Positions 8,807-37,176 of a stretch of 41,087 bases of DNA are shown here, in pieces. Source of the DNA: Limisphaerales bacterium (lineage in GTDB: Bacteria; Verrucomicrobiota; Verrucomicrobiia; Limisphaerales; CANJXF01); assembly GCA_046593365.1 (NCBI GenBank), contig JBKJOA010000066.1, forward strand, positions 1-41,087, read 5' to 3'. The notes beneath the pieces are model-generated. The model was not told where the DNA came from and ran no database searches. It saw only the letters and a list, made by a program, of their open reading frames with translations. Both the position numbers and the translations under genes were made by a program. Each line of letters starts with the position of its first letter. Position 1 is the stretch's first letter.

Positions 8807-8943
8807 GACTCTCCATTTTTAAAGTGCGATAAAATAAAACGTAAAACGCTCCCGGGTAATCTCACTTCGTTTCAATTAATGAGGGAGTGGGGAAACCCTG
8901 AAATTCTTCATGAGGGAAACCTTTTGAAAAACAAATAGTTTCG

Positions 8944-8970
8944 TTGAGACGCCTCGGTGAGACGTCTCAA
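8944..8970 (-). terminator. Hairpin between the receiver gene and the kinase gene (weak terminator or operator candidate)
   Basis: TTGAGACG (8944-8951) / CGTCTCAA (8963-8970) inverted repeat that includes the self-palindrome GAGACGTCTC. On the minus strand a TTTGTTTTT run begins ~9 nt after the stem, which is not a canonical spacing. Confidence 0.3.
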
Positions 8971-9069
8971 TACTACGAGAGGGGTTTATCATTTGAGGCG
9001 GCTAACCGAGCCGTCTTTACCGTTGTTCAGGAAAAAGGGGGAAGTTCATGACGGAAAACGTCTCTGTTT

Positions 9070-9662: not shown

Positions 9663-11159
9663 TCAACTGGAAATAATTTCGTTGATCACCTCCCCGTGAA
9701 CATCGGTCAAGCGTCGATCAATTCCATTATGGCGGAACGTCAACTTTTCGTGGTCAATCCCAAGTTGGTGAAGAATGGTTGCATGCAAATCGTAGCAATA
9801 AGTCGGGTTCTTCGCGGCTTTGTAAGACCATTCATCACTCTCTCCAAATGAAAAGCCGCCTTTGAATCCGCCGCCCGCCATCCAACTCGTGAACGTAAAT
9901 GGATTGTGATCGCGACCTTTGCCACCCTGGCCGCAGGGCATTCGTCCAAACTCCGTTGTCCAAATCACGATCGTGTCATCGAGCATCCCGCGCGATTTCA
10001 AATCCTTGATCAGCGCAGCGGCGGGTTTGTCCATGCTGCGCGCCATATCGAGGTGATCTTTCGCGATGTCTTCGTGGCTGTCCCAGTTGCGACGTGGAAA
10101 GCCATTGTCCGCGCCACTCCAGACTTGCACGAAACGAACGCCACGTTCGAGCAATCGTCGTGCGGTCAAACAACGTTGCCCAAAATCCTCAGTGATTTTT
10201 TCGTCGAGGCCGTAAAGTTTTTTGGTCGCTTCGGATTCACCTGAAATGTCCAAAACCTCCGGCGCGCTCAATTGTAATTTTGCAGCCAATTCGTAGGACA
10301 CGATCCGGGCGTCCAAACGCGAATCACCGCCGCGATTTTCCAGATGCGCATGGTTTAATTCCTTAAGCAATGCTTGCGTCGCCTTTTCACTCTCCGGCGT
10401 GATGAAGTTTGCCGACTTCGGCGGGAACAAATCATTAATCGGATTCGGTTTTCCAATGCCAATCCTTGTCCCTTGATGAGTCGCTGGAAGAAAACCCGCC
10501 GTCCAATTTCCCTGACCGTTCGGCGCAAGGCCGCGTGGATCGGGCAATACCACGAAGGTCGGCAGATTTTCCGTCAAACGACCCAGACCGTAGGAAACCC
10601 AAGCGCCCATCGCGGGAAAACCCGGCAGAACAAATCCGGTATTCTGCATGAATGTCGCCGGGCCGTGAACATTCGATTTGGAAACCATCGAATGAAGGAA
10701 CGCGATCTCATCCACGCACGAACCAATGTGCGGCACGAGGTCTGAAATTTGTTTTCCACATTGGCCGTAGGGTTTCCAGTCCCACGGACTTTTCATCACC
10801 GCGCCAGGATCACTTTGAAATAATTCCACTTTGCCGCCCGGATCAAACTTTTGGCCGCTGCGTTTGATGAGTTCAGGTTTGTAATCAAACGTGTCGCACT
10901 GGCTCGCCGCGCCGGACATGAATAATTGCACGACGCGCTTCGCTTTCGCCGGAAAATGCAAACCGCCATTAAATTCCAGCTTCGGTTTCGCCACATCCGC
11001 GAGCAAACCGTTTTCGCCAAGCAAATGAACCATCGCAATGCCGCCAAGTCCGCCGCCGAAGCGCCAGAGAAATTCGCGACGGTCAATGGCGCGCATATCT
11101 TCCGCGCCAAGTTGAATGGGGGCTTGTTGTGAAGAACAGATGTGAGCGTTCGTTTTCAT
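9663..11159 (-). CDS. DUF1501 family protein (sulfatase/alkaline-phosphatase-like fold) with Tat-type signal
   Basis: Twin-arginine motif DRREFLWRFGGGLGGIAM. DUF1501 hallmark block IVIWTTEFGRMP...GRDHNPFTFTSWMAGGGFKGG. The ATG at 11159 shares one nt with the upstream TGA (TGATG). Confidence 0.85.
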   Translation of the reverse strand: MKTNAHICSSQQAPIQLGAEDMRAIDRREFLWRFGGGLGGIAMVHLLGENGLLADVAKPKLEFNGGLHFPAKAKRVVQLFMSGAASQCDTFDYKPELIKRSGQKFDPGGKVELFQSDPGAVMKSPWDWKPYGQCGKQISDLVPHIGSCVDEIAFLHSMVSKSNVHGPATFMQNTGFVLPGFPAMGAWVSYGLGRLTENLPTFVVLPDPRGLAPNGQGNWTAGFLPATHQGTRIGIGKPNPINDLFPPKSANFITPESEKATQALLKELNHAHLENRGGDSRLDARIVSYELAAKLQLSAPEVLDISGESEATKKLYGLDEKITEDFGQRCLTARRLLERGVRFVQVWSGADNGFPRRNWDSHEDIAKDHLDMARSMDKPAAALIKDLKSRGMLDDTIVIWTTEFGRMPCGQGGKGRDHNPFTFTSWMAGGGFKGGFSFGESDEWSYKAAKNPTYCYDLHATILHQLGIDHEKLTFRHNGIDRRLTDVHGEVINEIISS

Positions 11160-14100
11160 CAATCGACAAACATAAATTCGGACGTGTTAAAAACGAGCCG
11201 GACGAGATTGGTCATTCCATATTTTTGTGCGAACGAAACGAGCCTTTTCATTTCGTCCGCAGTGGGTTGGCGGCTCAAAGCCAGTTGATAAATTTGTTCG
11301 ATTTGCTTTTTCAAATTGCCTGTCTTCGCCACGCGCGTCGCCAGATGTTCGCATTGTTTCAAAACGAATGGATTGTTCAAAACTGCCAGCGCTTGCAGCG
11401 AAGTCATCGTGATGTTGCGCTTCGGCGTGAGAATCGAGGCGTCTGGACAATCGAGCGAATCCATCAGCGGATCCGGCACGCTACGCACCACGAACCGGTA
11501 AATGCTCCGGCGACAACCCGCCGCGCTGTCCACATCGAACTGCGTGTAATCGTAAACTGGCGAATGATCGTCTTTGAATCCAAATTGCTGCGCCGACGAC
11601 CCACCCATCGTGAGATCAAGCTTGCCCGTGATGAAAAGCATCGAGTCGCGAATGGTTTCCGCATCCAGCCGCTCGCTGTTCCTGCGCCAGAGAAAACGAT
11701 TATCGGAATCGAATTTGGCGAATTCAGGATTATTCGCAGAGCTTTGCCGATACGCCGCGCTCGTCACGATCAAGCGGTGAAGTTTTTTCAACGACTCCCC
11801 ATTTTCCGAAAACCAAAACGCAAGCCAGTCGAGCAATTCTGGATGCGACGGCAGTGCGCCCATGTGGCCAAAGTCGTTTGGCGTATCGACGATGCCGCGC
11901 CCGAAATGATATTGCCAGACGCGGTTCACAATGGAGCGGCGGGTCAGCATGTTTTTCGGATTCGTAATCCACTTTGACAAAGCGGCGCGGCGCGTGCCTT
12001 CGTCATTCAAATCTGAAATGTGAAAATCCGAATCTGTTCCGGGCACGGCGGCAATTCCTGCGGGCGACATTAACTCCGTCGGGCGGTTTACATCGCCTCG
12101 CGCCAGGAAATGGACAGGTCGCGGAACTTTGGCCGGAATGAAGCTTCCGTTCGGTTTGAAATCGCTGGTTGCAGCGAAAACTTTTTGCGGCGGCGGCAAC
12201 GCGGCCAGGTCGCGGTCAACTTCGACCAGCCGATTGGTGGTGCGGTTTAGTTCATCGCGCTGCGAGATCTCAATCAAGTTATCCACAAGTGCTTTTCGTC
12301 TTTGGGCAAAGTCGTGTAACTCGCGTTCGAGTTGTTCCCGTTGTTTCCGCATCGGATCATCGGGCAAAGCGTCCGCGAGTTTTTTGCGGCTATCGAATCC
12401 GTCCACGAGAAACTTTTTTCCCCACAGGCCCCCTTCGATGGAATCAAGCGATGTAACTTCCGCGTTCATCGCTGCGTTGGTCCCGCTCACAAAAACCTGC
12501 AGCTCGGAGAGCGCAAAAACGAAATCGCTCGTGCGTTCCCAAAGGAGCGTTGCAGTGATGCGAATGAAACGCGCGGATTTTCCTTTTGCAGCGAATGAAA
12601 CAGGCTTGTCTCCAGGATTTTTGAAATCGGCGATGGTCTGGTCGGCAATCATTTCTGCACCAGCGAATTCTCTATCATTGGAACTCTCAACGCGAAAACG
12701 AGCGGGAAAACCAAAGCCAGGCGTGTCGGAAAAATCAATGGGCCGCGCCGGAACAATGGTGATTTGTTCAAGCGGCAAAGTTTTGCCGAGGTCAACCTGA
12801 ACCCACTTCAAATGATCTCGTGTTTTCTCAATGTCGCTATGATAACCGTTGCTTGGACTTTTTCCGGCGTCTCCAGTCTTTCCCAGCGCAGCGAGCTTTT
12901 GTTGGTCGTCGGCAGTTTGGGCGTCGAGTTGTTTGATTTCAGGACTGGAAATCGCGCTGATTTTGTTGGTGAGAGCCGCCAATTCATTTTCCAAAACGCG
13001 CTTTTCATTTTTCAACGAACGACGGCGAAGTAATGTCTCCTTGTCAGTGTCGAAATTTCTATCCGCACGGTCAACCCCCGCGAAAACAGCCTGCAAACCA
13101 TAATATTCCTTCTGCTGGATGGGATCGAACTTGTGATTGTGGCAACGGGCGCAATGAACCGTCAGACTTTGAAAAGTGGACATCGTCGTCATTACCATGT
13201 CATCGCGATCATTGTAGCGCGCAATAAGGCCGTCCGATTTTTCAATCGGCAATTCGACGTGCCCCACGAAATCCCACGGGCCGGCTGCGATGAAACCCAG
13301 CGCCACAATTCCGTCCGGACTGTCTGGAAATAAAACATCACCGGCGAGCTGTTCCTCGACAAATTGTGAATATGGCTTGTCGTTATTTAGCGAGCGGATG
13401 ACGTAATCGCGATACGGCCAGGCGTTAAGCCGCGGTTTATCCTTGTCGTAGCCGTGAGTTTCACCGAAGTGGACAACATCGAGCCAGTGCCGCGCCCAGC
13501 GTTCCCCATAACGTGGCGATGCAAGCAATCGGTCCACCAGCTTTTCGTAAGCATTCGGATTTTTGTCGCGCGCAAACTGTTCCACTTCTTCCGGCGTTGG
13601 CGGCAAGCCGGTCAAATCAAAACTCAAGCGGCGAATCAAAGTGCGACGATCCGCTTCCGGGGACGGTGAAAGTTTTTGCTCCTTGAGCTTCGCTAAAATA
13701 AAAAGATCGATTTCATTTCGCGCCCATTTTTTATTTTTTACGTTGGGCAGTGGAGGGCGCGACGCTGGTTTAAAACTCCACCAATCCGTTTTGTCTTTTA
13801 TTTTCGGCTGGGCTGCTTCGTCCGGCCAGTTCGCCCCTTGATCGATCCAGGCGCGCAACAAACCGACTTCTTCCACCGTCAGTCGTTCGCCCTTTTTCGG
13901 CATCACTAGATTTTTTTCCAAACCCGCGACGAGGTGGATCATCCGGCTCTTCGAGCTTTGGCCGGGAATGATGGCCGGGCCTGAAGTCCCCCCTTTGAGC
14001 GCGGATGATTTTGTGTCCCAGCGCAGTTCGTTTTCCTGCTTTTCCTCTCCATGACACGAGTAACACCGCTTGGATAGAATCGGCTGAATGTCGCGGACAA

Positions 14101-14206
14101 AATCAATTTGCTTCTGCGTCGGCGGCGGCAATTTTGTCAAATCTAATTGTTGTGCCAGGCTGCCTGAAGCAACGGAGCAGAACAGAATGAGATTTCGTAG
14201 GAACAT
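11159..14206 (-). CDS. PSCyt (planctomycete cytochrome c) / DUF1549 / discoidin (F5/8 type C) / DUF1553 secreted protein
   Basis: Signal peptide MFLRNLILFCSVASGSLAQQ and haem-binding-like CYSCHG near the N-terminus. A DUF1549-like region follows. The central discoidin pattern is KWVQVDLGKTLPLEQITIVP...ARFIRI...FALSELQVF. A second CARCHNHKFDP motif and a DUF1553-like C-terminus are present. ATG 14206 is chosen; GTG 14209 is an alternative start. Confidence 0.85.
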   Translation of the reverse strand: MFLRNLILFCSVASGSLAQQLDLTKLPPPTQKQIDFVRDIQPILSKRCYSCHGEEKQENELRWDTKSSALKGGTSGPAIIPGQSSKSRMIHLVAGLEKNLVMPKKGERLTVEEVGLLRAWIDQGANWPDEAAQPKIKDKTDWWSFKPASRPPLPNVKNKKWARNEIDLFILAKLKEQKLSPSPEADRRTLIRRLSFDLTGLPPTPEEVEQFARDKNPNAYEKLVDRLLASPRYGERWARHWLDVVHFGETHGYDKDKPRLNAWPYRDYVIRSLNNDKPYSQFVEEQLAGDVLFPDSPDGIVALGFIAAGPWDFVGHVELPIEKSDGLIARYNDRDDMVMTTMSTFQSLTVHCARCHNHKFDPIQQKEYYGLQAVFAGVDRADRNFDTDKETLLRRRSLKNEKRVLENELAALTNKISAISSPEIKQLDAQTADDQQKLAALGKTGDAGKSPSNGYHSDIEKTRDHLKWVQVDLGKTLPLEQITIVPARPIDFSDTPGFGFPARFRVESSNDREFAGAEMIADQTIADFKNPGDKPVSFAAKGKSARFIRITATLLWERTSDFVFALSELQVFVSGTNAAMNAEVTSLDSIEGGLWGKKFLVDGFDSRKKLADALPDDPMRKQREQLERELHDFAQRRKALVDNLIEISQRDELNRTTNRLVEVDRDLAALPPPQKVFAATSDFKPNGSFIPAKVPRPVHFLARGDVNRPTELMSPAGIAAVPGTDSDFHISDLNDEGTRRAALSKWITNPKNMLTRRSIVNRVWQYHFGRGIVDTPNDFGHMGALPSHPELLDWLAFWFSENGESLKKLHRLIVTSAAYRQSSANNPEFAKFDSDNRFLWRRNSERLDAETIRDSMLFITGKLDLTMGGSSAQQFGFKDDHSPVYDYTQFDVDSAAGCRRSIYRFVVRSVPDPLMDSLDCPDASILTPKRNITMTSLQALAVLNNPFVLKQCEHLATRVAKTGNLKKQIEQIYQLALSRQPTADEMKRLVSFAQKYGMTNLVRLVFNTSEFMFVD

Positions 14207-14309
14207 CACAATGGTGTAATAACACGAGCTTAAGGCTTCTTGGTTTAAGAGGACATTCTAAAAATTCGTCCGCAATTTCATAAACATCTGAGTGGGTCGA
14301 AAATTTTTC

Positions 14310-16855: not shown

Positions 16856-17818
16856 TTACTGTGGAATGACGCGGTAAAATCGGGTGCTGGAAGAAATGGG
16901 GTCCGACACGAAAATATTTGTTTCAATGATCGGCGCGCTGATGTTGGTGACGGCCAACCATGAATTTGTAGAAGCAAGCGCGTTTTTAAATTCCACTTTG
17001 TAAGCTTCATTGGCTTCCGCAAGAAACGAAAAAACGAATTGCCCGTTAGTGATTTGAGGATTGAAAATGGTCGGCGGCGCAACGAATTTAACTTCCAGTT
17101 TGGGGGGCGAATTGGTGTCTTCTCCGGTAAATTCTCGTGAGCCAAATCCGCGTGCCGTGTAAGTAGTTCCTTCATTTTCTGTTTTTAAGAGCCAACCGAA
17201 GTTTGCAGAAGGATTATCAAGCCACGTTTGAACATCGGATTCCATGTTCAAACTGGTTTCAAAATGAGGGTACTCCAGAGAGGAAATACTCGCTGATGAA
17301 CTAATCGCCAGGATGTAGTCATTTGAGGCTCCAGGAAAACTCCAGGTGTTGGTGGTCAGGGCAAAACGATGGTTCCAGGTTGCCTCATTGATCGTTGCTA
17401 AAACTCCCAGTCCCGGTGATGCGTTAGTGAACTTGTTCCCTTCGCCCCAGGGTCTCAGCATCCGATGAAGCGTATATGAGGCAGGGACAGAAACGAGTGA
17501 CTGAAATCTGACTTCAAGAAATAAATCGGCAGATTTTATTATTGAGGCTTGTGGAATGGATCTTAAGTCGAATTGAAATAAACCTCGATTTCTCGTGAAG
17601 CCTGCGTTCATGCCGGTCGTGCCAGCATTGACGAAATCAGAGCCGCCGAGGTTATTATCTGGCTCTTTTTCAACCAGGGTCGTATCGGCTGCGGGCTGAA
17701 GAACTACGGTGGTCGCGATTGCCGGATGAGCGATGGTGGCACCCAGCGCAGTCGAAAGAAAAAAACAGCGTATGCCCGCAAAATTCATCTGGAATTTTAT
17801 CGCAGGCGAGTTCTTCAA
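16856..17818 (-). CDS. Secreted protein: DNRLRE-like N-terminal beta-sandwich plus a C-terminal FYR module
   Basis: Signal peptide (MNFAGIRCFFLSTALGATIAHPAIA). AADTTLVEKEPDNNLGGSDFVNAGTT...RNRGLFQFDLRSIPQASIIKSADLFLEV resembles the DNRLRE-domain pattern. It ends ...SSTRFYRVIPQ. The TTG at 17818 overlaps the upstream TGA; the alternative ATG at 17788 lies 26 nt downstream of that stop. Confidence 0.6.
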   Translation of the reverse strand: MKNSPAIKFQMNFAGIRCFFLSTALGATIAHPAIATTVVLQPAADTTLVEKEPDNNLGGSDFVNAGTTGMNAGFTRNRGLFQFDLRSIPQASIIKSADLFLEVRFQSLVSVPASYTLHRMLRPWGEGNKFTNASPGLGVLATINEATWNHRFALTTNTWSFPGASNDYILAISSSASISSLEYPHFETSLNMESDVQTWLDNPSANFGWLLKTENEGTTYTARGFGSREFTGEDTNSPPKLEVKFVAPPTIFNPQITNGQFVFSFLAEANEAYKVEFKNALASTNSWLAVTNISAPIIETNIFVSDPISSSTRFYRVIPQ

Positions 17819-19503
17819 ACAATGTCTAACTCACCGGCGATGGTAGTGCCATCGGTTTTTTCTGTAGTGCTGTTGCTCGTAGTTCCTCCGTTTTGCAGCT
17901 TTTGGTTTACGACTGTATAGGCCGGGATGATTCTATTTAACTGTGACTGGGTGGCACCGAGATGGTCACGAATGATTTCCCCGAGCACAGATCGATAATC
18001 AACGGAGCGTTTCAAATAACTGGAACTGACTCCAAACATAGTACCGTTCTTGATGTTCGGTGGTTTTACAGGGTCGGGGTCCGGGATGACGGCTCCCGGA
18101 GTCCACCCAACCGAATGGCCGTTGTAATTGTCGCCCGTATGGCAACCAAAAATGCCAGTGATGCGGCCATTTTTGCCATAACCTTTCACACCGCCCCCGG
18201 CAACGAACATCGGGCCAGCTTCGGCGTGATCTGTGCCGAAAGTTCCGTTTTCGGCGCTGGTTCTGCCAAATTCGGAGAGGGTCACGACGATCATGTTATC
18301 CCAGGTGGCTCGGTCATGGTAAATCTGGAAATATTTTCGAAGGCCATACATCGCCCAGGCAATTCGCTTTTGGAGCTTGGCGTGATCGCCTTCAAAACGA
18401 TTAGGGAGCGCCGTAACTGGATCAACAGGGAGGATTTGATTGCTATGTGTGTCAAATCCTCCTAATTCCGTGCCAGCGATAATGGCGTCGGTTTTGTTCA
18501 AGATTTGCGCCGCTGCTTTCAGGCTTTTAAAGAAAGTATAAGTGTTGGAACTGGAATCGACCACGCCATTGGGATTTTTAGCAGCCGCAGTTGGAAAGAG
18601 ATAATAACCTTGGGTCGGCCCCGCCACGGAATCCTGAAATGTGTTTCCCGTTTCAGAGAAATCGATTCCTCCCGCAAACTCGCCCAAGACCGTATTGAGG
18701 TTTTTATATTGCAAGCTGAGAAGCTCGCGATTTTTTTTGTTCGGCCCCGAAAAGCTGTTGGCAGTGAAAAGGTTGTTGGTCGCCTTCAATTGTCCAGCCG
18801 TAATGTTGGGGATGCCGAGCAATTTAAAACGTGTGGGATCACTGAGATTGGTCATGGCCGCATCGGAACCGCGCAACAAAAGCGGCAATGCGGATTGAAT
18901 CGAAACGCCGGTAAGAGGATTGGTGTTCGCCAAACCTGACTCGATCATTGCGCGATAAAAAATTCCGTCCTTGGAAAGGTTATTGTTCGGATTGCCGTTT
19001 TCCCAATAGATTTGGGAATCAAAATGAGAGCGCGATTGCCTTGGATAGCCGACACGATGGATTAATGCCAAGTCCCCCGCGTTGTGGACCGGAGCGAGAT
19101 ATTTTAAGGACGGATGAAGTGCGGCAAACCCATTGCCGCCACGGATGGCTTCCGTCGGAAAACCCGCCAGCCCACTAAAGTCATCCATTAAACCGGTCGC
19201 CGTGGAATAATAATTTGCCGGTGCCGTCCCGCTTTTTGGAATACCAATTTTGGGACGATTAGGGGCATAAACCGGATCTTCAATTGGAATGACGGAATTG
19301 AGACCGTCATTGCCAAAGCGCAGAAAAATAAAAAGCACTTTCTTAGTTTTTCCGTCTGGTCCGGGAATTCCAATGTTGCCTTCAGCCAGGGCGCGCTTCA
19401 TTACGAACGGAATGTCGGTCAAAGTGGAGAGCGCAACACCAAGGCCGATTTTTAAACTGCGGTCAAAGAAACCGCGACGGGTGATAATGTTAAAATGTTG
19501 CAT
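17815..19503 (-). CDS. DUF1501 family protein with Tat-type signal (DUF1800 partner type)
   Basis: Twin-arginine motif TRRGFFDRSLKIGLGVAL. Hallmark blocks YPRQSRSHFDSQIYWENG, GGFDTHSNQ and VVTLSEFGRTSAENGTFGTDHAEAGPMFVAGGGVKG. Confidence 0.85.
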   Translation of the reverse strand: MQHFNIITRRGFFDRSLKIGLGVALSTLTDIPFVMKRALAEGNIGIPGPDGKTKKVLFIFLRFGNDGLNSVIPIEDPVYAPNRPKIGIPKSGTAPANYYSTATGLMDDFSGLAGFPTEAIRGGNGFAALHPSLKYLAPVHNAGDLALIHRVGYPRQSRSHFDSQIYWENGNPNNNLSKDGIFYRAMIESGLANTNPLTGVSIQSALPLLLRGSDAAMTNLSDPTRFKLLGIPNITAGQLKATNNLFTANSFSGPNKKNRELLSLQYKNLNTVLGEFAGGIDFSETGNTFQDSVAGPTQGYYLFPTAAAKNPNGVVDSSSNTYTFFKSLKAAAQILNKTDAIIAGTELGGFDTHSNQILPVDPVTALPNRFEGDHAKLQKRIAWAMYGLRKYFQIYHDRATWDNMIVVTLSEFGRTSAENGTFGTDHAEAGPMFVAGGGVKGYGKNGRITGIFGCHTGDNYNGHSVGWTPGAVIPDPDPVKPPNIKNGTMFGVSSSYLKRSVDYRSVLGEIIRDHLGATQSQLNRIIPAYTVVNQKLQNGGTTSNSTTEKTDGTTIAGELDIV

Positions 19504-19505
19504 AA

Positions 19506-21719
19506 TTATTGTTCCTGGAAACGTTGCAGAGAAAACAGATATGCGACCATACCGCGGACTCGGATATCGTAAGCACCAGTTGCGGTGGCGCTTGGAGTCA
19601 AATTTGCAAAAAAGGTTGCCGTGGCTGGATTATCCGCACTGCCGTCATTTAAATAATTTATTGCAGCCGTTCGATATTGATTAAGATTTCCCGCTCCTTC
19701 GCCCGGATACATGATACCTAATACGTAATCCACGATTGCCGCTGCGTTTGTTCGACTAGCCACCGGCAGTTTTGAGAAAATTAAATTCACCGGCGAGCAA
19801 AAGGTATTATTTCCAGCGTCATTGGTCGAGGTTTCGGATGTGCCGGTGTGTCCAGCCTGGCCAATCGCAGTAGAGAACGACTGCACAAAGCGGATTCGTT
19901 CCGAAAGAGTTCCGGAACTAATCCAATAAGGAGCATCTTCGGGGTAGCCGTCCGGTGCGCCGCGGTCAAAGAGACTCATGGCACCCATTCGATTAAGAGG
20001 TCCTAACAATCCCGGCGAGTTCCCGACTGTTTTAACCAGATTATAACCATCCGTATCCGCTGAGTAGGAATTGACCAGAAAACTTCCATTTGTGCTCGAA
20101 CGCAAAGCTCGAATTGCGCTCACCGTATATTCGAGCGGAGTTTTTACTTTTTGCATAGATCCGTCATGACTTCGAAACAGATCAGAATTAAAAATCGTCG
20201 TCAGCACCGGCCTGATTCGCCCTTTAGGCGGAGTGTTCCACGCTGTCATGCAATCCCTAACCAACTGAGCCTCCGGCGACAAATTTCCTCCAGCGTAGTC
20301 ATAAAAATCGTAAGCGGGATTGTTGGTGTCATTGCTGGGATTTGGGAAGTCGTCATGAACAAAGAGACGGCAAAGTTTTACACTGATATATTCCTGGGTG
20401 AACGGTAAATCCGCCAGATAAGAGATGACGTCGTAGCCATCCTGAATCGCATTGGTACCTGTGCGTGCGGGAAAGCCAAAGGTGTATTTTCCAGGAACGG
20501 TATTCGTCCCATATAAACTAGTCGTATAAGGAGCACCAAAACGCGCTGGAATGGAGGCATTGGTAAACAGAGTTTTCGGACGAGTGCCGGGACTAACGTC
20601 ATGGGCCGCGGAGTTAAAATTAAAAGCCCAAACACCGGCCAGATTCGAGACGATGTTATAATTCGTTTGGCCCGCTGCAATTGCGCTAGCGAGCATATTG
20701 GTCAGGCGCGTCGCAAAAGGATTGAATGCATTGGTTGGTGAGACGATTTGAATTGTCCAACCCGTCCAAGACCTAGACATCGCCAGGATGTCGTTTTGGG
20801 TATATCCGTTATCGACACCGAAGGTAAAAAGCTCCAGAAGTTCGCGCGCATAATTTTCGTTGGCGATGTTTGAACCGTTTCCCTTACTCGTCACTGTGTC
20901 CAAATAGATAATCATCGCAGGGCTTTCCGCGCTTATCCTTAACAGATCGTAGAAAGTGCATGCGGGATTGAGCAGAGCGTTGCGCCATTTATCATTTTCC
21001 AGATACTCGAATTGCGTGGCAATGCGGTTTTCATTCACGCCTCCATCGTAAAATTGATCAAAATAGTCGTCAGATTTCGAAAACTGGGTCACAAAATGAT
21101 TCTCAAAAAACTGGAGCAGCACTTCCAACAATTGGCGTTTCGCGCCAACCGCCCTCAAAATGTGCCAGGCGCGAAAATCATCTATCGTGGCGTAATTGGA
21201 ACTGGAGGGGATTACATCCAAGACGCCGGCGAATTTTGCTTGGATAATATTGATGTTTGTATGGGAATTGGTCACGGTTTCGGCAATTGATTCTGGGGCA
21301 AGTTGTTCGATAATGTAAGCATCGGGACCAATCGGGCTGATTCCGGTAAGGATTCTATCGAGGTCATCGGGCGAAGGTCCGTAAGCCAGCCGATTTAGGA
21401 CATTCGCTGATAATAATTCGTTGCTCGTCAGCGGCGTTACCTTCAGTTGGTAAAAATTTACCGGAACGGTGCTGGTTCCCGTCCATACATACCCCGAAAT
21501 CAGGCCACTGCTATTCGTGGTGAATCCATTAGCCAGATTCGTGCTGCTCAAAATTGAATAGTTCTTTGCAGCAGGGAATGGAGCCCACTTGATGATCTGT
21601 TGCGATCCGTTGAACGAAAAATTTGTTATCGACAGAGGCGGCGGTTCCGAGGCAATCACCAAAAGCGAAGATGCGAATATAAAAAAATTAACCAAAAACA
21701 GTTTATTCATAGCAGTCAT
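19506..21719 (-). CDS. DUF1800 family secreted protein with an extra N-terminal FYR-type module
   Basis: Signal peptide MTAMNKLFLVNFFIFASSLLVIAS. DUF1800 blocks LNRLAYGPSPDDL, LLQFFENHFVTQ and ELLELFTFGVDNGYTQNDILAMSRSWTGW. Its stop is 2 nt before the DUF1501 ATG (TAAttATG). Confidence 0.85.
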   Translation of the reverse strand: MTAMNKLFLVNFFIFASSLLVIASEPPPLSITNFSFNGSQQIIKWAPFPAAKNYSILSSTNLANGFTTNSSGLISGYVWTGTSTVPVNFYQLKVTPLTSNELLSANVLNRLAYGPSPDDLDRILTGISPIGPDAYIIEQLAPESIAETVTNSHTNINIIQAKFAGVLDVIPSSSNYATIDDFRAWHILRAVGAKRQLLEVLLQFFENHFVTQFSKSDDYFDQFYDGGVNENRIATQFEYLENDKWRNALLNPACTFYDLLRISAESPAMIIYLDTVTSKGNGSNIANENYARELLELFTFGVDNGYTQNDILAMSRSWTGWTIQIVSPTNAFNPFATRLTNMLASAIAAGQTNYNIVSNLAGVWAFNFNSAAHDVSPGTRPKTLFTNASIPARFGAPYTTSLYGTNTVPGKYTFGFPARTGTNAIQDGYDVISYLADLPFTQEYISVKLCRLFVHDDFPNPSNDTNNPAYDFYDYAGGNLSPEAQLVRDCMTAWNTPPKGRIRPVLTTIFNSDLFRSHDGSMQKVKTPLEYTVSAIRALRSSTNGSFLVNSYSADTDGYNLVKTVGNSPGLLGPLNRMGAMSLFDRGAPDGYPEDAPYWISSGTLSERIRFVQSFSTAIGQAGHTGTSETSTNDAGNNTFCSPVNLIFSKLPVASRTNAAAIVDYVLGIMYPGEGAGNLNQYRTAAINYLNDGSADNPATATFFANLTPSATATGAYDIRVRGMVAYLFSLQRFQEQ

Positions 21720-31573: not shown

Positions 31574-32824
31574 ATGGCTGTAGCGGAAAACCAGCCGACC
31601 AAAAACCGCGTGAACACAATTCTATCTTTCCACGATTTCGCCGAGGCTCTGTGCGAGTTCATTCACCAAAGTGCTGCCGACATGCTGTCGGCAAAATCGA
31701 CCGAGCTGCCGACCGAATGCCGGCAGCACCTTGAAACGCCATTCAACGAACTCGCTTTGTCTCTTTTCGCCCTGCAATTCTCTGGGGTTGCTCCGTATCG
31801 CCGCTTCTGCGACGCGCGAAAAATTTCTCCAACCAACATCAAACAGTGGAAAGAAATTCCCTCTCTGCCCACGAGCGCTTTCAAAGAACTCGAACTTTCC
31901 AGTTTGAAAACAAACGAACGAACCCATGTTTTTCACTCCAGCGGAACGACCGAACAGGTTCCCAGCCGCCACTTTCACAACGCGGAATCCCTCGCGATTT
32001 ATGAAGCGTCGCTCTTGCCCTGGTTCCAAAAACATTTTCTGAGCGACTGGGACAAATTGGCCGAGCCTGCGTTAACGGGTCCGATTGAAAAGCCCGGTTT
32101 TATTTTTCTGACGCCCCCCCCTGCCCTTGCGCCAAATTCTTCGCTCGTTCACATGTTCGAAACCGTTCGCTACCATTTGGGTTCACGCGATTCTTTTTTT
32201 GGCGGGAAAATTGACGACGCCAATTCCTGGACATTGGACATCGAACAAACGCTTTTCGGTTTGCGCAAATCTATGTGTGCAAATCGTCCCATCGGGATTC
32301 TTGGAACGGCTTTCTCGTTTGTTCATCTTTTAGATTATTTTGCCGCCAACAACATTCGCTATCGGCTCGCCGCCGGATCGCGTGTTCTGGAAACGGGCGG
32401 CTACAAAGGGCGTTCGCGATCTTTGCCAAAGGCGGAATTGCATCAACTGATCACCAAACACCTTGGAATTCCCGCGTCGCACATCATTTGCGAATACGGC
32501 ATGAGCGAACTCAGTTCTCAAGCCTATGATCACTCGATTGAATTTCAGCCCGATTCTGAAAATAAAAACATAAAATCTAAAACCAAAAACTCGCGGGCGT
32601 TTAGTTTTCCCCCGTGGACGCGCGTCCAAATTATTTCGCCCGAAACGGGCAACGAGGTTAACGAAGGCGAAACCGGTTTGATCCGCATCGTGGACCTGGC
32701 GAATGTCTTTTCCATCCTCGCCGTCCAGACCGATGATTTGGGAATTCGGTGCGGCAATGGTTTTAAGCTGGTGGGTCGCGCAACGCTGGCAGAACCGCGC
32801 GGTTGTTCCTTGATGGCGAAATAA
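31574..32824 (+). CDS. LuxE-family acyl-protein synthetase (adenylate-forming) homologue
   Basis: FHSSGTT (AMP-binding-type motif), LETGGYKGRS, EYGMSELSSQ, PPWTRVQII.PETG, GLIRIVDLAN and the C-terminal LVGRATLAEPRGCSLMAK follow the LuxE family layout. ATG 31574 is chosen; TTG 31541 and ATG 31682 are alternatives. Confidence 0.8.
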   Translation: MAVAENQPTKNRVNTILSFHDFAEALCEFIHQSAADMLSAKSTELPTECRQHLETPFNELALSLFALQFSGVAPYRRFCDARKISPTNIKQWKEIPSLPTSAFKELELSSLKTNERTHVFHSSGTTEQVPSRHFHNAESLAIYEASLLPWFQKHFLSDWDKLAEPALTGPIEKPGFIFLTPPPALAPNSSLVHMFETVRYHLGSRDSFFGGKIDDANSWTLDIEQTLFGLRKSMCANRPIGILGTAFSFVHLLDYFAANNIRYRLAAGSRVLETGGYKGRSRSLPKAELHQLITKHLGIPASHIICEYGMSELSSQAYDHSIEFQPDSENKNIKSKTKNSRAFSFPPWTRVQIISPETGNEVNEGETGLIRIVDLANVFSILAVQTDDLGIRCGNGFKLVGRATLAEPRGCSLMAK

Positions 32825-32893
32825 TCTCAGAGCGACAAAACAATCCGTGAAATCTCGTTTCAACTGTGGCTAATTCCACTCGGCTTTCACAAG

Positions 32894-34153
32894 ATGGATC
32901 AAAATAGAAAAAGTAAAATTCGAACGCTCTGGCTGTGCGGGGCGCTGCATGCGTTCACGCACATTTATCACGTCGCGTTGATCCCGCTCTATTTGCTCAT
33001 CCAAAAAGATTTCCAGCTCGCCAGTGTTGAGGCGGCCACGCTGCTCGTCACCATCATGGGGATCTCTTATTTTCTGCCCAGCTATCTGATGGGAATTCTG
33101 GCGGATCGCGTGAGCCGCAAAAAACTTCTGGCGTTTGGCCTCGCGATCAACGGCCTCGGGTTTGTGGGCCTCGCCTTTGCGCCGACTTATTCCGTGGCGT
33201 TGGTCTGCGTGATCATCGCTGGTTTGGGTGGAAGTTTTTATCATCCGGCAGCCACGGCGTTGGTGGCGCGTTTGTATCCAACCGGAACCGGTAAAGCCCT
33301 CGGCCTGGTTGGGATTGGTGCCAGTGTTGGATTTTGTGTAAGCCCAATTTATTCCGGTTGGCGCGCCATGCATGGAAACTGGCGAAACCCCGTTCTCGAA
33401 CTTGGCTTGTTGGGCATCGTTGCCGCCATTGCCTTCTACTTACTCGCGGAGGAAGATCGTTTGCCGGAATCGGAAACCCGATTCTCGTCGTCATCCGAGA
33501 AAATTTTTCCGACGCGCACGCTCTGGCTATTTTTTATTGCGGCTAGTTTCGCTTTCAGCATGCGTGATTTTGCGGGGAGCGGCATGGGAAGTTTGTCATC
33601 GCTTTTTCTCCAGCAAGCGCACGCGTTCAATCCGAAATTCACCGGCCTGGCGCTCTCGGGACTCTTCCTCGCTTCCGCGATCAGCAACCCGCTCTTTGGC
33701 GGCCTCAGCGACGGTGGACGCATGCGGTGGACAAGTTTGGTGCTTCTGGTCGCAGCCCTTATGATCGCCCTCTTTCCGCATGTCTCCCAAAACTGGATCA
33801 TTCCAACGCTCGCGATTTACGGATTCTTTTTCATGGCCAGCTATCCAATGGTCGAAGCGGCGATCATGGAATCAGTGCATGATTCCGTGCGCGGCCGGGT
33901 CTTCGGATTGTTCATTACGGTGGGTGGATTGATCGGCAACGTGTCGCATTGGGCGGTGGGAAACTGGGTTAAACATTTAGGTGAAAAGAGTCACCTGCCC
34001 AGCTCCTACTCTCCAATATTCAGCCTACTCGCACTGTTGGTTTTACTTTCCCTGATTGGCTTGCCTTGCTTGCATGCAATTCGGAAAAAGGAAATTCTTG
34101 CGCAGGTTGACGGGGTAACTCGAGAACCGGCCATTCGCGCTGAACCAAAATGA
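32894..34153 (+). CDS. MFS transporter
   Basis: 419 aa with ~12 hydrophobic segments and the MFS loop 2-3 signature GILADRVSRKKLL. A central hydrophilic loop separates two 6-TM halves. Its stop overlaps the next gene's start (ATGA at 34150-34153). Confidence 0.85.
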   Translation: MDQNRKSKIRTLWLCGALHAFTHIYHVALIPLYLLIQKDFQLASVEAATLLVTIMGISYFLPSYLMGILADRVSRKKLLAFGLAINGLGFVGLAFAPTYSVALVCVIIAGLGGSFYHPAATALVARLYPTGTGKALGLVGIGASVGFCVSPIYSGWRAMHGNWRNPVLELGLLGIVAAIAFYLLAEEDRLPESETRFSSSSEKIFPTRTLWLFFIAASFAFSMRDFAGSGMGSLSSLFLQQAHAFNPKFTGLALSGLFLASAISNPLFGGLSDGGRMRWTSLVLLVAALMIALFPHVSQNWIIPTLAIYGFFFMASYPMVEAAIMESVHDSVRGRVFGLFITVGGLIGNVSHWAVGNWVKHLGEKSHLPSSYSPIFSLLALLVLLSLIGLPCLHAIRKKEILAQVDGVTREPAIRAEPK

Positions 34154-35511
34154 ATCTGCCGAATTATTTTCTCGCGGATCTTTCTCACGGCACTGCGTTG
34201 ACCCCCGCGGTCATTAGTGATGCCTGCCAAACGCTCAAGAAGAATCGGGAAAATTATTTAGCGACACGTTCGACGCAAAGTTTAATTCGCATCGTGTCCG
34301 GCATCGCGAAAAATTGGCTCGATCCCGATGACGTGTTTCGTCAGGAAACCATTCGGCACGGACCTGCTGCCACCGGTTTTACCCGCGAGACATTGGCAAC
34401 CGGATTGGATTTATTTTTTGAACAAGTCACTGCGGAAAATTTGCAAACGTTGGTCATCCAGGAATTCGGCGACGCGCAACGCCTCGACACGCTCAGCGCC
34501 ACTCCATCCGAGCAAAAAACCAATCGTGCTTCGTTTGTGCGCGGCCCGGAATTACTCGCGCACATCACCGGCGGAAGCATTCCCAACCCGGTGTTGACCA
34601 GCATCATTTTTGGGCTGCTCACGCGCTCGGCACAGTTTGTGAAATGCGCCAGCGGCAGCTCATTTGTGCCTCGGATGTTTGCACACTCGATTTATGAAAC
34701 GGAACCAAAACTCGGTGCCTGTCTGGAAATCGCCGAGTGGAAGGGCGGCAACGAAATCCTGGAAAATGCGCTCTTCTCTGAAATCAATACGCTCACCGCC
34801 ACTGGCAGCGACGAAACTTTGGAAACCATTCGCCGACGCTTGCCGCCAAAAGTTCGTCTGATCGGCCACGGTCATCGTGTGAGTTTTGCCTTTGTCACAA
34901 ACGAAGTTCTTTCTGGAATGAATCCGCAAAGGATTGTCTCACGCGCCGCGCGCGACATCGTGGCGTGGAACCAACTCGGCTGTCTTTCGCCCCATGTGAT
35001 TTACGTCGAGACCGGCGGAAAAATTTCCTCAGAACAATTTGCGGAAATGCTCGCGACGGAACTGGACACGATGGAGCAACAACAACCGCGCGGAATCTTG
35101 TCCACCGAAGAAGCGTCCGCCATCGCTTATCGCCGCTCATTTTACGAAGTTCGCGCAGCGCATTCACTGGACACAAAATTGTGGAGCAGCAGCGGTTCGA
35201 CCGCGTGGACGGTGGTGTTTGAAAATGACCCCCGGTTTCAGATGTCGTGTTTGAATCGCTTTATTTATGTGAAGGCAGTGGGCAATTTGAAGCAGGCGTT
35301 GGAAGGCGCGGACGCCGTGCGCACCAAGGTTTCAACTGTAGGAATCGCTGCTACCGAAGATCGTGCGCTGGAAATTGCCAACGAACTTGCGCAATGGGGC
35401 GCGACCCGAATTTGTCCACTTGGCCAGATGCAAAACCCGCCGCTGTTGTGGCGGCACGATGGACATCCGGCTCTCGGTGATCTCGTCACCTGGACCGATT
35501 GGGAAATGTAA
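34150..35511 (+). CDS. LuxC-family acyl-CoA/acyl-protein reductase homologue
   Basis: 453 aa with an aldehyde-dehydrogenase-like layout. Motifs include HITGGSIPN, LTATGSDETL, GHGHRVSFAFV and a candidate nucleophile Cys in DIVAWNQLGCLSPHVIYVE. It sits in an operon with the luxE-like gene. Confidence 0.75.
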   Translation: MNLPNYFLADLSHGTALTPAVISDACQTLKKNRENYLATRSTQSLIRIVSGIAKNWLDPDDVFRQETIRHGPAATGFTRETLATGLDLFFEQVTAENLQTLVIQEFGDAQRLDTLSATPSEQKTNRASFVRGPELLAHITGGSIPNPVLTSIIFGLLTRSAQFVKCASGSSFVPRMFAHSIYETEPKLGACLEIAEWKGGNEILENALFSEINTLTATGSDETLETIRRRLPPKVRLIGHGHRVSFAFVTNEVLSGMNPQRIVSRAARDIVAWNQLGCLSPHVIYVETGGKISSEQFAEMLATELDTMEQQQPRGILSTEEASAIAYRRSFYEVRAAHSLDTKLWSSSGSTAWTVVFENDPRFQMSCLNRFIYVKAVGNLKQALEGADAVRTKVSTVGIAATEDRALEIANELAQWGATRICPLGQMQNPPLLWRHDGHPALGDLVTWTDWEM

Positions 35512-35541
35512 ACCGCAGTAACGTAGAAAGAGAATAGAAGC

Positions 35542-35901
35542 ATGAGAATGGAATTAAGAAAAAGTTTTCAGTTTGAAGCGGCACACCTTTTGCCGCATCT
35601 GCCAGAATCGCACAAATGCCGGCGTCTTCACGGACACAGTTTCACCGCTGAAATTGTGGTCTCTGGAGAATGCGATCCAAGGCTGGGATGGTTAATGGAT
35701 TATGCTGAAATCTCCGCCGCCTTCAAACCGCTCTGGGAAAAACTCGACCATTTTTATCTCAACGAAATTCCCGGCCTGGAAAATCCGACGAGCGAAAACA
35801 TCGCCGTCTGGATTTGGGATCAATTGAAGCCGAAGCTCCCGATGTTAAGTGAAGTGGTGATCGCGGAAACATGCACTGCGCAGTGTGTTTATAGGGGATG
35901 A
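35542..35901 (+). CDS. queD: 6-carboxy-tetrahydropterin synthase / 6-pyruvoyl-tetrahydropterin synthase family (T-fold)
   Basis: 119 aa. [26 protein letters not shown] (Cys...HGH zinc/catalytic motif) and the C-terminal ETCTAQCVY match small bacterial QueD/PTPS. QueD and PTPS cannot be told apart by eye. Confidence 0.8.
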
Positions 35902-35907
35902 AGTTCG

Positions 35908-35942
35908 CAGCCGTGTCTCGCATGAGCACGGGTTGGTTTTTT
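35908..35942 (+). terminator. Rho-independent terminator candidate after queD
   Basis: CCGTG (35911-35915) / CACGG (35927-35931), extendable with one mismatch to AGCCGTG/CACGGGT. It is followed by GTTGGTTTTTT (T-run 35937-35942). Confidence 0.55.
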
Positions 35943-35997: not shown

Positions 35998-37176
35998 CTA
36001 CCGCGTCCCCATGCCGACACTTTGCACGGTTTGGAAGAGTTTGCCCTCGGTCTTGATGCTGGGAGCGATAATGATTTCGGTTTCTTGAAACTCGCGGATG
36101 CTTGACGCACCAACGTTGCCCATGCAAGTGGTAATGGCCCCGACCAAATTTTGAGAGCCATCGTCAACGGTCGCCGGACCGAAGAGAATTTGTTTAAGCG
36201 AACCAGTCACGCCGACCTTGATGCGTGTGCCGCGAGGGAGATTGGCGTGAGGCGTTGCCATACCCCAGTGATTTCCTTTTCCGGGGGCTTCTTCAGCGCG
36301 GGCAAACGCGCTCCCCACCATGACGGCATCCGAACCGCAGGCCAGAGCTTTGCAGACATCTCCGCCTTTGCTCATCCCACCATCGGTAATGATGGGAATA
36401 TATTTGCCGGTCTTTTTGAAATAAGCATCGCGGGCCGCGGCGCAATCCACCGTGGCGGTGACTTGCGGAACGCCCAGCCCGAGCACACCGCGACTCGTGC
36501 AAGCCGCTCCCGGCCCAACGCCGATCAACACACCAGCGACACCGTTCTTCATCAATTCCAAAGTCACATTGTAAGTCACGGCATTTCCAATGATGACCGG
36601 GATATTTAACATTTTCGTGAACGCCGCGAGGTCAAACGTTTTGTATTGCGTGGAAACATGACGCACGGTCGAGACAGTCGATTGCACGATAAAAATATCC
36701 GCACCGGCTTCTTGCGCAATGCAAGCGAACCGTTCAGCTTTTTGCGGAATGGAACTGACGGCGGCAAGTACACCAGCGGCCTTCAACTCCTGAACGCGCT
36801 TGGCAATTAATTCTTCTTTGATTGGTTCCAGATAGAGCTTTTGAATAAGCGTGGTAACTTCGTCTTTGTTGGCATTGACGACTTTTTCCAAGACGTCGCG
36901 GGGATTCTCATAACGGGTTTGTACTCCTTCGAGATTGATGACGCCCAGACCGCCCAGCTTGCCCATCTCTATGCAGAAACGAACGTCCGTGACGCCGTCC
37001 ATGGCACTGGCGATGATCGGAATGGCAAGTTCAATCGAGCTGCCGTCTTTGCGCGGTATTTTGAAACGAGTATCGACTTCGTTGGGGTTGATGGTCACTT
37101 CGCCCGGGACAAGTGCAATCTCGTCAAATCCATAAGTGACGCGTGCTTTTCGATTTCGGCCAATCCACATTCCCAT
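35998..37176 (-). CDS. IMP dehydrogenase family protein lacking CBS domains (GuaB3-like)
   Basis: 392 aa. The N-terminus is TYGFDEIALVPG, and the active-site-loop-like segment is GVGPGAACTSRGVLGLGVPQ. DGGM..GGDV.KALA.GSDAVMVGS is also present. It is too short to contain the CBS pair of canonical GuaB. Confidence 0.85.
   Translation of the reverse strand: MGMWIGRNRKARVTYGFDEIALVPGEVTINPNEVDTRFKIPRKDGSSIELAIPIIASAMDGVTDVRFCIEMGKLGGLGVINLEGVQTRYENPRDVLEKVVNANKDEVTTLIQKLYLEPIKEELIAKRVQELKAAGVLAAVSSIPQKAERFACIAQEAGADIFIVQSTVSTVRHVSTQYKTFDLAAFTKMLNIPVIIGNAVTYNVTLELMKNGVAGVLIGVGPGAACTSRGVLGLGVPQVTATVDCAAARDAYFKKTGKYIPIITDGGMSKGGDVCKALACGSDAVMVGSAFARAEEAPGKGNHWGMATPHANLPRGTRIKVGVTGSLKQILFGPATVDDGSQNLVGAITTCMGNVGASSIREFQETEIIIAPSIKTEGKLFQTVQSVGMGTR

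Follow-up and report, generated by a model that had tools for sequence, protein, structure and literature searches.

A luxE-luxC-queD gene cassette of Verrucomicrobiota with a preQ1-I-like leader and a candidate role in queuosine-precursor metabolism

Genes of the cassette and their conservation

The 41,087-nt stretch JBKJOA010000066.1 (hereafter the window) carries at 31574-35901 a cassette of four open reading frames (ORFs), all on the + strand in the window's ORF listing: a luxE-like gene, a major facilitator superfamily (MFS) transporter gene, a luxC-like gene and queD. Together with its relatives in other genomes, this cassette can be placed with good confidence in 7-deazaguanine/queuosine-precursor metabolism. 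The luxE-like stop (32824) is followed, after a spacer of 69 nt, by the MFS ATG (32894), the MFS stop and the luxC start overlap in an ATGA (34150-34153), and 30 nt separate the luxC stop (35511) from the queD ATG (35542). These junctions are exactly as described in an earlier reading made by a model from the DNA letters only (hereafter the sequence-only reading), and the four genes look co-transcribed. The hairpin and T-run with which that reading closed the unit are also present (Table 1); with a z-score of only -1.46 and no report of 35908-35942 by a consensus scan, a terminator is thermodynamically unremarkable and plausible rather than strong. The gene after the hairpin is convergent to the cassette.

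Both enzymes belong to the families initially proposed for them. The LuxE-like protein matches Pfam LuxE (PF04443) with 69.8 bits (cut-off 24.9) and the LuxC-like protein matches Pfam LuxC (PF05893) with 228.2 bits (cut-off 21), its residues 38-448 covering positions 2-401 of the 401 in the profile. The motifs FHSSGTT, ETGGYKGRS, YGMSE and ...PRGCSLMAK of LuxE and NQLGCLSPH of LuxC are all found in the translations. The Photobacterium phosphoreum LuxC-LuxE complex 7XC6, the only solved complex of this kind, was used as structural reference. LuxC Cys278 (NQLGCLS) aligns with the catalytic Cys of DQQACFS in 7XC6_A, presumably the catalytic or acylated Cys286/296 of that enzyme, and is invariant in 16 homologues of the clade. 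The C-terminal PRGCSL of LuxE aligns with QKGCSL of 7XC6 chain E, in which Cys364 is the acyl site, and RGCSL is conserved across loci. The Lys/Arg pair for adenylation aligns as well (GGYKGRS versus GGWKTKQ; Arg in vgR). Both Cys residues singled out from the letters, one near the LuxE C-terminus and one in LuxC, thus correspond to catalytic residues of the solved complex.

The pair is nevertheless remote from the bioluminescence enzymes. LuxC reaches 57.3 bits against the equivalog NF052251 (cut-off 750) and LuxE 65 bits against NF052244 (cut-off 550), both below, and about 30 C-terminal residues of P. phosphoreum LuxC are missing in the window protein, including I472, L478 and F483 of the distal myristoyl cleft. 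As had been noticed, luxA, luxB, luxD and luxG are absent from the window: Pfam found no luciferase, LuxD or LuxG family among its other ORFs, and luxA, luxB and luxD are not among the recurrent neighbours of 80 related loci. Alignments and profiles support a non-luminous pair predicted to activate a carboxylate and reduce the thioester, with both catalytic Cys intact. In some LuxC-family clades with 37-45% identity to the window LuxC, Gly or Pro replaces the catalytic Cys (NQLGGQAP, NQFGPFAP and NQTSGHAP; alignment A2, entries P0124, P0126 and P0130); judging by these motifs, such members cannot be thioester reductases of the usual type. The same mixed-clade alignment was too divergent for use in the collection scan.

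The fourth protein matches Pfam PTPS with 121 bits, the QueD equivalog TIGR03367 with 101.5 bits (cut-off 89.25) and the Escherichia coli QueD structure 4NTM with 185.7 bits (E = 2.8e-54). The active-site motif Cys-x-x-x-H-G-H is present as HKCRRLHGH. The transporter matches Pfam MFS_1 with 141.7 bits (3.6e-41).

A scan of one genome per GTDB species revealed 449 genomes encoding a relative, of which the best 80 loci were analysed. Limisphaerales or Pedosphaera-like metagenome-assembled genomes of Verrucomicrobiota supply all of the closest homologues. Throughout the genome loci luxE lies upstream of luxC (59/59), and at 75 of the 78 species-level genome loci queD follows luxC immediately, the two genes overlapping in some; a clade with 44% identity shows luxC-queD as well. 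The MFS gene, by comparison, is found between luxE and luxC in only 24 of 67 orthologous genome loci, 64% being without it. The conserved core is luxE-luxC-queD and the MFS is an optional insert. Of the luxE-MFS-luxC(-queD) synteny expected from the window, the enzyme genes are therefore kept and the MFS is not, so that the transporter is no defining partner of the cassette, whereas the suggestion that the T-fold enzyme might be functionally linked proved the right lead. The recurrent neighbours (ddl-ftsQAZ, mutY-like, cysteine desulfurase-like, RNase HIII-like and rluA-like genes and a superoxide dismutase gene) are housekeeping genes and are not functionally informative. Since even the most frequent flanking family occurs in only 34/80 loci, the linkage of queD appears selected rather than inherited with the surrounding synteny.

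Representatives with 37-47% identity to the window LuxC stand in mixed contexts, one showing luxC-queD and another a queE-type radical-SAM gene and a class-III aminotransferase gene upstream of luxE-luxC. To follow this sister clade, homologues were searched for a second time, metagenomes were scanned (80 loci), and a further search set out from the aminotransferase. Its operon is co-directional and consists of queE, a conserved 80-aa ORF, an Aminotran_3 gene, luxE and luxC, with QueE scoring 280-298 bits against TIGR04349. Of the 19 core-clade loci whose upstream sequence extends for 5 kb or more, 17 carry both queE and the aminotransferase gene, as do all three loci found by way of the aminotransferase. 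The operon is embedded in several different, unrelated genomic contexts, and named aminotransferase matches place the clade in Verrucomicrobiae. In terms of gene content, queE-aminotransferase-luxE-luxC is the set that would be expected for the conversion of 7-carboxy-7-deazaguanine (CDG) to an aldehyde and then to an amine.

An example of the sister operon lies at L173:9091-13612; others are at L088, L092, L174, L175 and about 17 metagenome loci. Its 80-aa protein (MSLR..VKSDQIQGWIEERHG..), conserved in 14 loci, has no Pfam family match. At L092, a repetitive extragenic palindrome (REP)-associated tyrosine transposase (RAYT) gene is inserted between queE and the aminotransferase gene (6613-7152), and a small ICMT/PEMT-like membrane methyltransferase gene, seen in about five sister-clade loci, lies between the aminotransferase gene and luxE (8571-9002). 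A search for a regulatory RNA upstream of sister-clade queE gave only a promoter-like element and no riboswitch. This element (e.g. L173:9040-9093) is a conserved TTGACG-N17-TGnTAnnnT with a GTG start about 7 nt after the -10 box, which suggests that the queE mRNA may be leaderless.

An RNA leader at the start of luxE

In the LuxE N-terminal alignment, a seemingly conserved peptide ('AVAENQP..KNR') lies upstream of the true start codon. The sequence-only reading had begun luxE at ATG 31574; because a conserved RNA element (31576-31609) precedes the start in about 100 related loci, that choice is 36 nt too far upstream and the window gene probably starts at GTG 31610. The element has the form GGCUG-U-N-GCGG-AAAAC-CAGCC-(variable, A-rich)-CCGC-AUG/GUG. 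With a relaxed pattern, 107 matches were found in 2.17 Mb of related loci, 101 of them at the luxE 5' end. Essentially all loci of the window clade and about 15 of the sister clade have the element there. The leader is linked to queD in the one and to queE in the other. With a covariance model (R1, 93 distinct copies), the window contains a single copy, at 53.3 bits (E = 3.5e-15).

Stem P1 is 89-95% paired and three of its pairs change on both sides; pair 5, for instance, is GC in 83 copies, CG in 5, GU in 2, UA in 1 and AU in 1. Its covariation score of 0.072 compares with 0.041 in shuffles and was reached by none of 500 shuffles. The strands of P2, GCGG and CCGC, could pair with each other and show no change in 93/93 sequences. 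This CCGC falls within luxE codons 3-4 in the sister clade and does not vary there either, which points to a constraint on the RNA. A -10-like TAnnnT box is found at a fixed 8 nt upstream of the leader in 47/78 loci (11/78 when shuffled), and this fixed distance places the leader at the 5' end of the mRNA. Alignment A4 of the element shows no change at A23 and C24, at least 90% conservation of T14, and conservation also of A35, A36 and A38.

Class I preQ1 riboswitches, as reviewed in PMC11625349, form H-type pseudoknots of about 34 nt in which the P1 3' strand is directly preceded by AC or UC, the C of this dinucleotide pairing with the ligand. U residues come after their P1 5' strand, the tail is rich in A, and P2 covers the initiation region. 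The leader likewise has AC before the P1 3' strand, a U starting L1 and an A-rich L3, and the lengths of its elements parallel those of the E. coli yhhQ leader (UUGGG-UU-CCCU-CAC-CCCAA-...AAA-AAGG). It likely folds as an H-type pseudoknot, and in topology and key nucleotides it resembles the preQ1-I riboswitches, which makes it a candidate riboswitch. Its presence in both clades argues for one function and one ligand.

Table 1. Coordinates of the cassette, its leader and related riboswitches. Positions are those of the window unless a locus is named
Feature	Position	Strand	Basis or source
Candidate riboswitch leader, preQ1-I-like H-type pseudoknot	31576..31609	+	Motif, covariance model, P1 covariation
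Leader P1 5' strand, GGCUG	31576-31580	+	
Leader L1, UA	between 31580 and 31583	+	
Leader P2 5' strand, GCGG	31583-31586	+	
Leader L2, AAAAC ('AC' invariant)	between 31586 and 31592	+	
Leader P1 3' strand, CAGCC	31592-31596	+	
Leader L3, A-rich	31597-31605	+	
Leader P2 3' strand, CCGC, abuts start codon	31606-31609	+	
luxE-like acyl-protein synthetase, predicted ATP-dependent carboxylate activation, 404 aa from GTG 31610	31610..32824	+	Pfam LuxE, alignment with 7XC6 chain E
MFS_1 transporter, optional cassette member	32894..34153	+	Pfam MFS_1, 3.6e-41
luxC-like acyl-thioester reductase, predicted NADPH-dependent, aldehyde-forming	34150..35511	+	Pfam LuxC, Cys278 alignment
queD, 6-carboxy-5,6,7,8-tetrahydropterin synthase, PTPS-I type, HKCxRLHGH motif	35542..35901	+	TIGR03367, match to 4NTM
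Terminator-like hairpin, then run of six U	35908..35942	+	Folding, minimum free energy -13.7 kcal/mol
Thiamin pyrophosphate (TPP) riboswitch upstream of LuxE-like 'fatty acid-CoA ligase'-LuxC-SDR (short-chain dehydrogenase/reductase) cluster	L180:5589-5718		Pantoea dispersa
TPP riboswitch upstream of LuxE-like-LuxC-SDR cluster	L181:1390-1497		Lactiplantibacillus plantarum
TPP riboswitch upstream of LuxE-like-LuxC-SDR cluster	L183:5472-5604		Azospirillum lipoferum

Further features were seen in the window. Inside luxE, at 31667-31733, lies an inverted repeat whose 27-nt arms are 85% complementary and enclose a loop of 13 nt; a second pair, of 11 nt (31653-31663 / 31745-31755), flanks it. The LuxE insert that contains the repeat is N-terminal, in frame and variable; the window and L009 have this insert, and the close relatives L005 and L011 do not. 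The repeat may be an in-frame insertion of a repeat element or a structured mRNA segment. An IMP dehydrogenase/GMP-reductase-family gene (35998-37176, - strand) is convergent to queD. It was considered as a cassette partner in view of the ToyE-type enzymes of deazapurine pathways and of a guaC gene beside the Priestia LuxEC cluster, and rejected because this adjacency is not conserved at any other locus. Two gene pairs without known function that are typical of the Planctomycetes-Verrucomicrobia-Chlamydiae group occur on the - strand at 9663-14209 and 17815-21719, a PSCyt1/PSCyt2/PSD1 (DUF1549/DUF1553) protein with DUF1501 and a DUF1800 protein with DUF1501. Both pairs fit a Verrucomicrobiota origin of the window.

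A candidate route to preQ1 and its alternatives

QueE makes CDG, which is a carboxylic acid. LuxE/LuxC-type enzymes convert a carboxylate to an aldehyde, and class-III aminotransferases convert an aldehyde to a primary amine. Applied to CDG, this would give preQ1 as the amine, which the canonical pathway obtains through QueC and QueF. From this established enzyme chemistry and the gene clustering, we infer a chain from CDG through an aldehyde to preQ1. On balance, it is somewhat probable that the cassette is a riboswitch-controlled operon in which LuxE and LuxC reduce CDG to the aldehyde en route to preQ1, bypassing QueC and QueF. QueD, assigned by its close similarity to the E. coli enzyme, would convert dihydroneopterin triphosphate to 6-carboxy-tetrahydropterin (CPH4), from which QueE, encoded elsewhere in the window organism, would form CDG. 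LuxE would then adenylate the CDG carboxylate at the expense of ATP and load the acyl group on its own C-terminal Cys, and LuxC would take it over on its own Cys and reduce it with NADPH to 7-formyl-7-deazaguanine. Transamination to preQ1 would fall to the class-III aminotransferase, which is in the operon in the sister clade and was not located near the window cassette. In this way LuxE/LuxC and the aminotransferase would replace both nitrile formation by QueC and nitrile reduction by QueF.

The leader pseudoknot may fold around a 7-deazaguanine ligand, probably preQ1; in the ligand-bound form P2 would sequester the four nucleotides beside the start codon and turn luxE translation off. Where it is present, the MFS probably imports an exogenous 7-deazaguanine precursor for the preQ1 pathway. 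Experiments have demonstrated transport of preQ0 and preQ1 by an MFS_1 protein (PMC11130926), which is a precedent and not evidence on the window MFS. The broader proposition, that preQ1 is made independently of QueC and QueF via CDG and 7-formyl-7-deazaguanine in Verrucomicrobiota of soil and freshwater (449 or more genomes at species level), with a new preQ1-I-like riboswitch subtype at the luxE start, might equally well hold or fail. A literature search found no paper linking LuxC/LuxE to QueD, QueE, CDG or queuosine, nothing on 7-formyl-7-deazaguanine and nothing describing the leader RNA motif. What is new is not the protein families or the riboswitch architecture but their combination and the route that it implies.

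Several observations weigh against this proposed bypass. The 41-kb window holds no aminotransferase or queE gene, none was found in the 8 kb on either side of 80 loci of the same clade, and in this clade queD does not follow luxC at three loci from genomes and six from metagenomes. The bypass would also be weakened if queC and queF both lay elsewhere in these genomes. With E. coli queries, no queA, tgt, queC, queF, folE, folB, folK or folP gene was found in the flanks of 174 loci (2.17 Mb), which gives neither added support nor refutation. On the RNA side, P2 is without variation and so without covariation support, and is not provable in this manner; a pterin ligand would offer a similar hydrogen-bonding face. 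No Rfam family matches the leader, a search of 96 nt with the limit set at E <= 10 still not reporting preQ1-I (RF00522), and preQ1, tetrahydrofolate (THF) and other known riboswitches were not found in the window or in eight sister-clade loci. This negative carries little weight because the validated E. coli yhhQ preQ1-I type III leader (L184:5170-5220), used as positive control, was likewise missed (Rfam 15, E <= 1, 301 nt), and negative Rfam results for such small preQ1-I-like elements should not be over-read.

More distant relatives widen the picture. LuxC homologues with 31-33% identity (about 235 bits) occur in cultured bacteria, on plasmids or chromids of Pantoea, Azospirillum, Priestia and Lactiplantibacillus, in clusters of a LuxE-like gene, LuxC and an SDR with an SLC23 nucleobase-type or ABC transporter. 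A TPP riboswitch at the Rfam gathering score lies directly upstream in 3 of the 4 distant clusters examined. For OarX/acyl-CoA-synthetase clusters, an unsolved thiamin-salvage hypothesis has been put forward (PMC11223231). The TPP-riboswitch clusters appear related to these, and their gene content may suggest salvage of a thiamin moiety from carboxylate to aldehyde to alcohol. With these clusters, LuxE/LuxC pairs outside bioluminescence recur where riboswitches regulate the metabolism of small heteroaromatic cofactor precursors, frequently beside an importer, which fits the deazaguanine route and argues against a fatty-acid one.

Among the alternatives, a pterin route is unlikely, if still the one to be considered first. 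Here LuxE/LuxC would act on CPH4, the QueD product, or on imported pterin-6-carboxylate, and the resulting 6-formyl-tetrahydropterin, a tautomer of 6-hydroxymethyl-7,8-dihydropterin, would feed folate synthesis (as a FolB bypass or salvage) or another pterin cofactor. The physical coupling of the queD gene to luxC, up to overlap, fits such a route, as does established QueD chemistry, its product being itself a carboxylic acid, and the MFS could import an oxidised pterin. In the sister clade, however, the same enzymes and the same leader are tied to QueE and an aminotransferase, neither of which a pterin route would call for; moreover, the 2.17 Mb of flanks hold none of the four fol genes and Rfam found no THF riboswitch. 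A FolB bypass from CPH4 through 6-formyl-H4-pterin to hydroxymethyl-dihydropterin had been a candidate and was demoted given the QueE/aminotransferase operons and the shared leader.

Alternatively, the 7-deazaguanine made or modified by the operon could serve something other than tRNA queuosine, for example a deazapurine secondary metabolite, a precursor for DNA modification or the aldehyde as end product. This shares the QueD and QueE links with the preQ1 route, and no tgt or queA gene lies nearby. It is nonetheless improbable, given that in hundreds of free-living species the cassette is present once, on the chromosome, with housekeeping genes (dcw cluster, thrS, nuo) around it, and that its clusters contain no DpdA/TGT-like, glycosyltransferase or phosphoribosyltransferase genes. 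A phage collection held no close relative, the sole match being an unannotated record with 20% identity (E = 2e-6).

Little credence is likewise given to salvage of an oxidised or damaged precursor, in which the main task would be to recycle an imported heteroaromatic carboxylate, by analogy with the OarX-type TPP clusters, and not to run a de novo bypass. Transporters are embedded in both cluster families, and thiamin salvage has its place in the literature cited above; yet where the MFS is missing, the operon still has its de novo genes (queD, or queE in the sister clade), which fits synthesis better than salvage alone.

The model of the sequence-only reading, a stand-alone fatty-acid reductase coupled to the MFS in the manner of LplT/Aas with queD as a housekeeping gene on the shared transcript, keeps its carboxylate-activating and -reducing pair and its co-transcription and finds no support for the lipid substrate or the LplT/Aas analogy: characterised LuxC/LuxE do reduce myristic acid and the MFS is translationally coupled to luxC in the window, but a fatty-acid substrate is very improbable given an MFS missing from most orthologous cassettes, a near-universal QueD linkage despite differing flanks, a preQ1-I-like leader and a sister operon that point to deazaguanines, relatives behind TPP riboswitches, scores far under the lux cut-offs, no recurring LuxD, thioesterase, acyltransferase or lipid genes nearby, and an MFS whose 25 best NCBIfam matches, out of 44 below threshold, do not include LplT.

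To our knowledge, the bacterial queuosine pathway is considered fully solved, running from GTP through CPH4, CDG and preQ0 to preQ1. If the proposed preQ1 route is true, its nitrile-free segment would change how the completeness of the pathway is scored in genomes and metagenomes, where organisms without queC/queF are currently called salvagers. It would also give a first physiological role outside bioluminescence to thousands of 'acyl-CoA reductase / long-chain fatty acid ligase' annotations, offer structural and synthetic biology a new variant of small riboswitch, and supply biocatalysis with a compact carboxylic-acid reductase of two proteins that acts on polar heteroaromatic acids. The parallel with the TPP-riboswitch clusters is a concrete lead on the unsolved OarX thiamin-salvage question, and together the two families would redefine non-luminous LuxCE pairs as heteroaromatic carboxylate reductases in cofactor-precursor metabolism.

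Comparison with known systems

The closest biochemical reference is the lux reductase LuxC-LuxE(-LuxD) of Vibrio, Photobacterium and Photorhabdus, which shares with the window the families PF05893 and PF04443, adjacent co-directional genes, the LuxC Cys, the GCSL acyl-Cys motif and the Lys/Arg pair of LuxE. The window differs in having no luxA, luxB, luxD or luxG, in equivalog scores of about one-tenth of the cut-offs and in a LuxC without the C-terminal segment lining the distal myristoyl cleft. The partners also differ, being QueD, QueE and an aminotransferase with a riboswitch-like leader before luxE, and the C14 fatty acid of lux would be replaced by a heteroaromatic acid. The E. coli LplT/Aas pair resembles the window in an MFS gene beside that of an adenylate-forming enzyme; the window has no acyltransferase, LplT is not among the 25 best matches of its MFS, and the MFS is dispensable in most cassettes.

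In the canonical preQ1 pathway (QueD, QueE, QueC and QueF, as in the Bacillus queCDEF operon behind a preQ1-I riboswitch), QueD and QueE are encoded in operons, as in the cassettes, and a preQ1-I-like 5' leader is common to both. The proposed route would share its start (CDG) and its end (preQ1); between them, the canonical pathway makes a nitrile with QueC and reduces it with QueF, whereas the cassette would use ATP- and NADPH-dependent carboxylate reduction followed by transamination. Acid-to-aldehyde-to-primary-amine sequences are known from cascades of a carboxylic-acid reductase and an omega-transaminase (tambjamine, prodigiosin alkylamines), and the proposed route would follow the same logic with a thioester reductase and a class-III aminotransferase. 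Those cascades act on fatty acyl chains on carrier proteins and use other enzyme architectures, TabE being ATP-independent.

The TPP-riboswitch clusters share with the window homologous LuxE and LuxC, riboswitch or riboswitch-like control, an embedded transporter and the lack of an assigned function. They differ in the TPP riboswitch itself, in an SDR instead of an aminotransferase or QueD, in their phyla and in their presumed product, the alcohol of a thiamin moiety. As for the leader, it agrees with the preQ1-I riboswitches (RF00522, types I-III, e.g. yhhQ) in being a likely H-type pseudoknot of about 34 nt with a 5-bp P1, an L1 starting with U, 'AC' directly 5' of the P1 3' strand, an A-rich L3, a predicted 4-nt P2 that would occlude the initiation region and a position upstream of a queuosine-precursor gene. 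Its P2, by contrast, is a GCGG/CCGC pair by the start codon and not an anti-Shine-Dalgarno/Shine-Dalgarno pair, its L3 can hold hairpin insertions, it comes from Verrucomicrobiota, and it goes unmatched by an Rfam model that misses yhhQ too.

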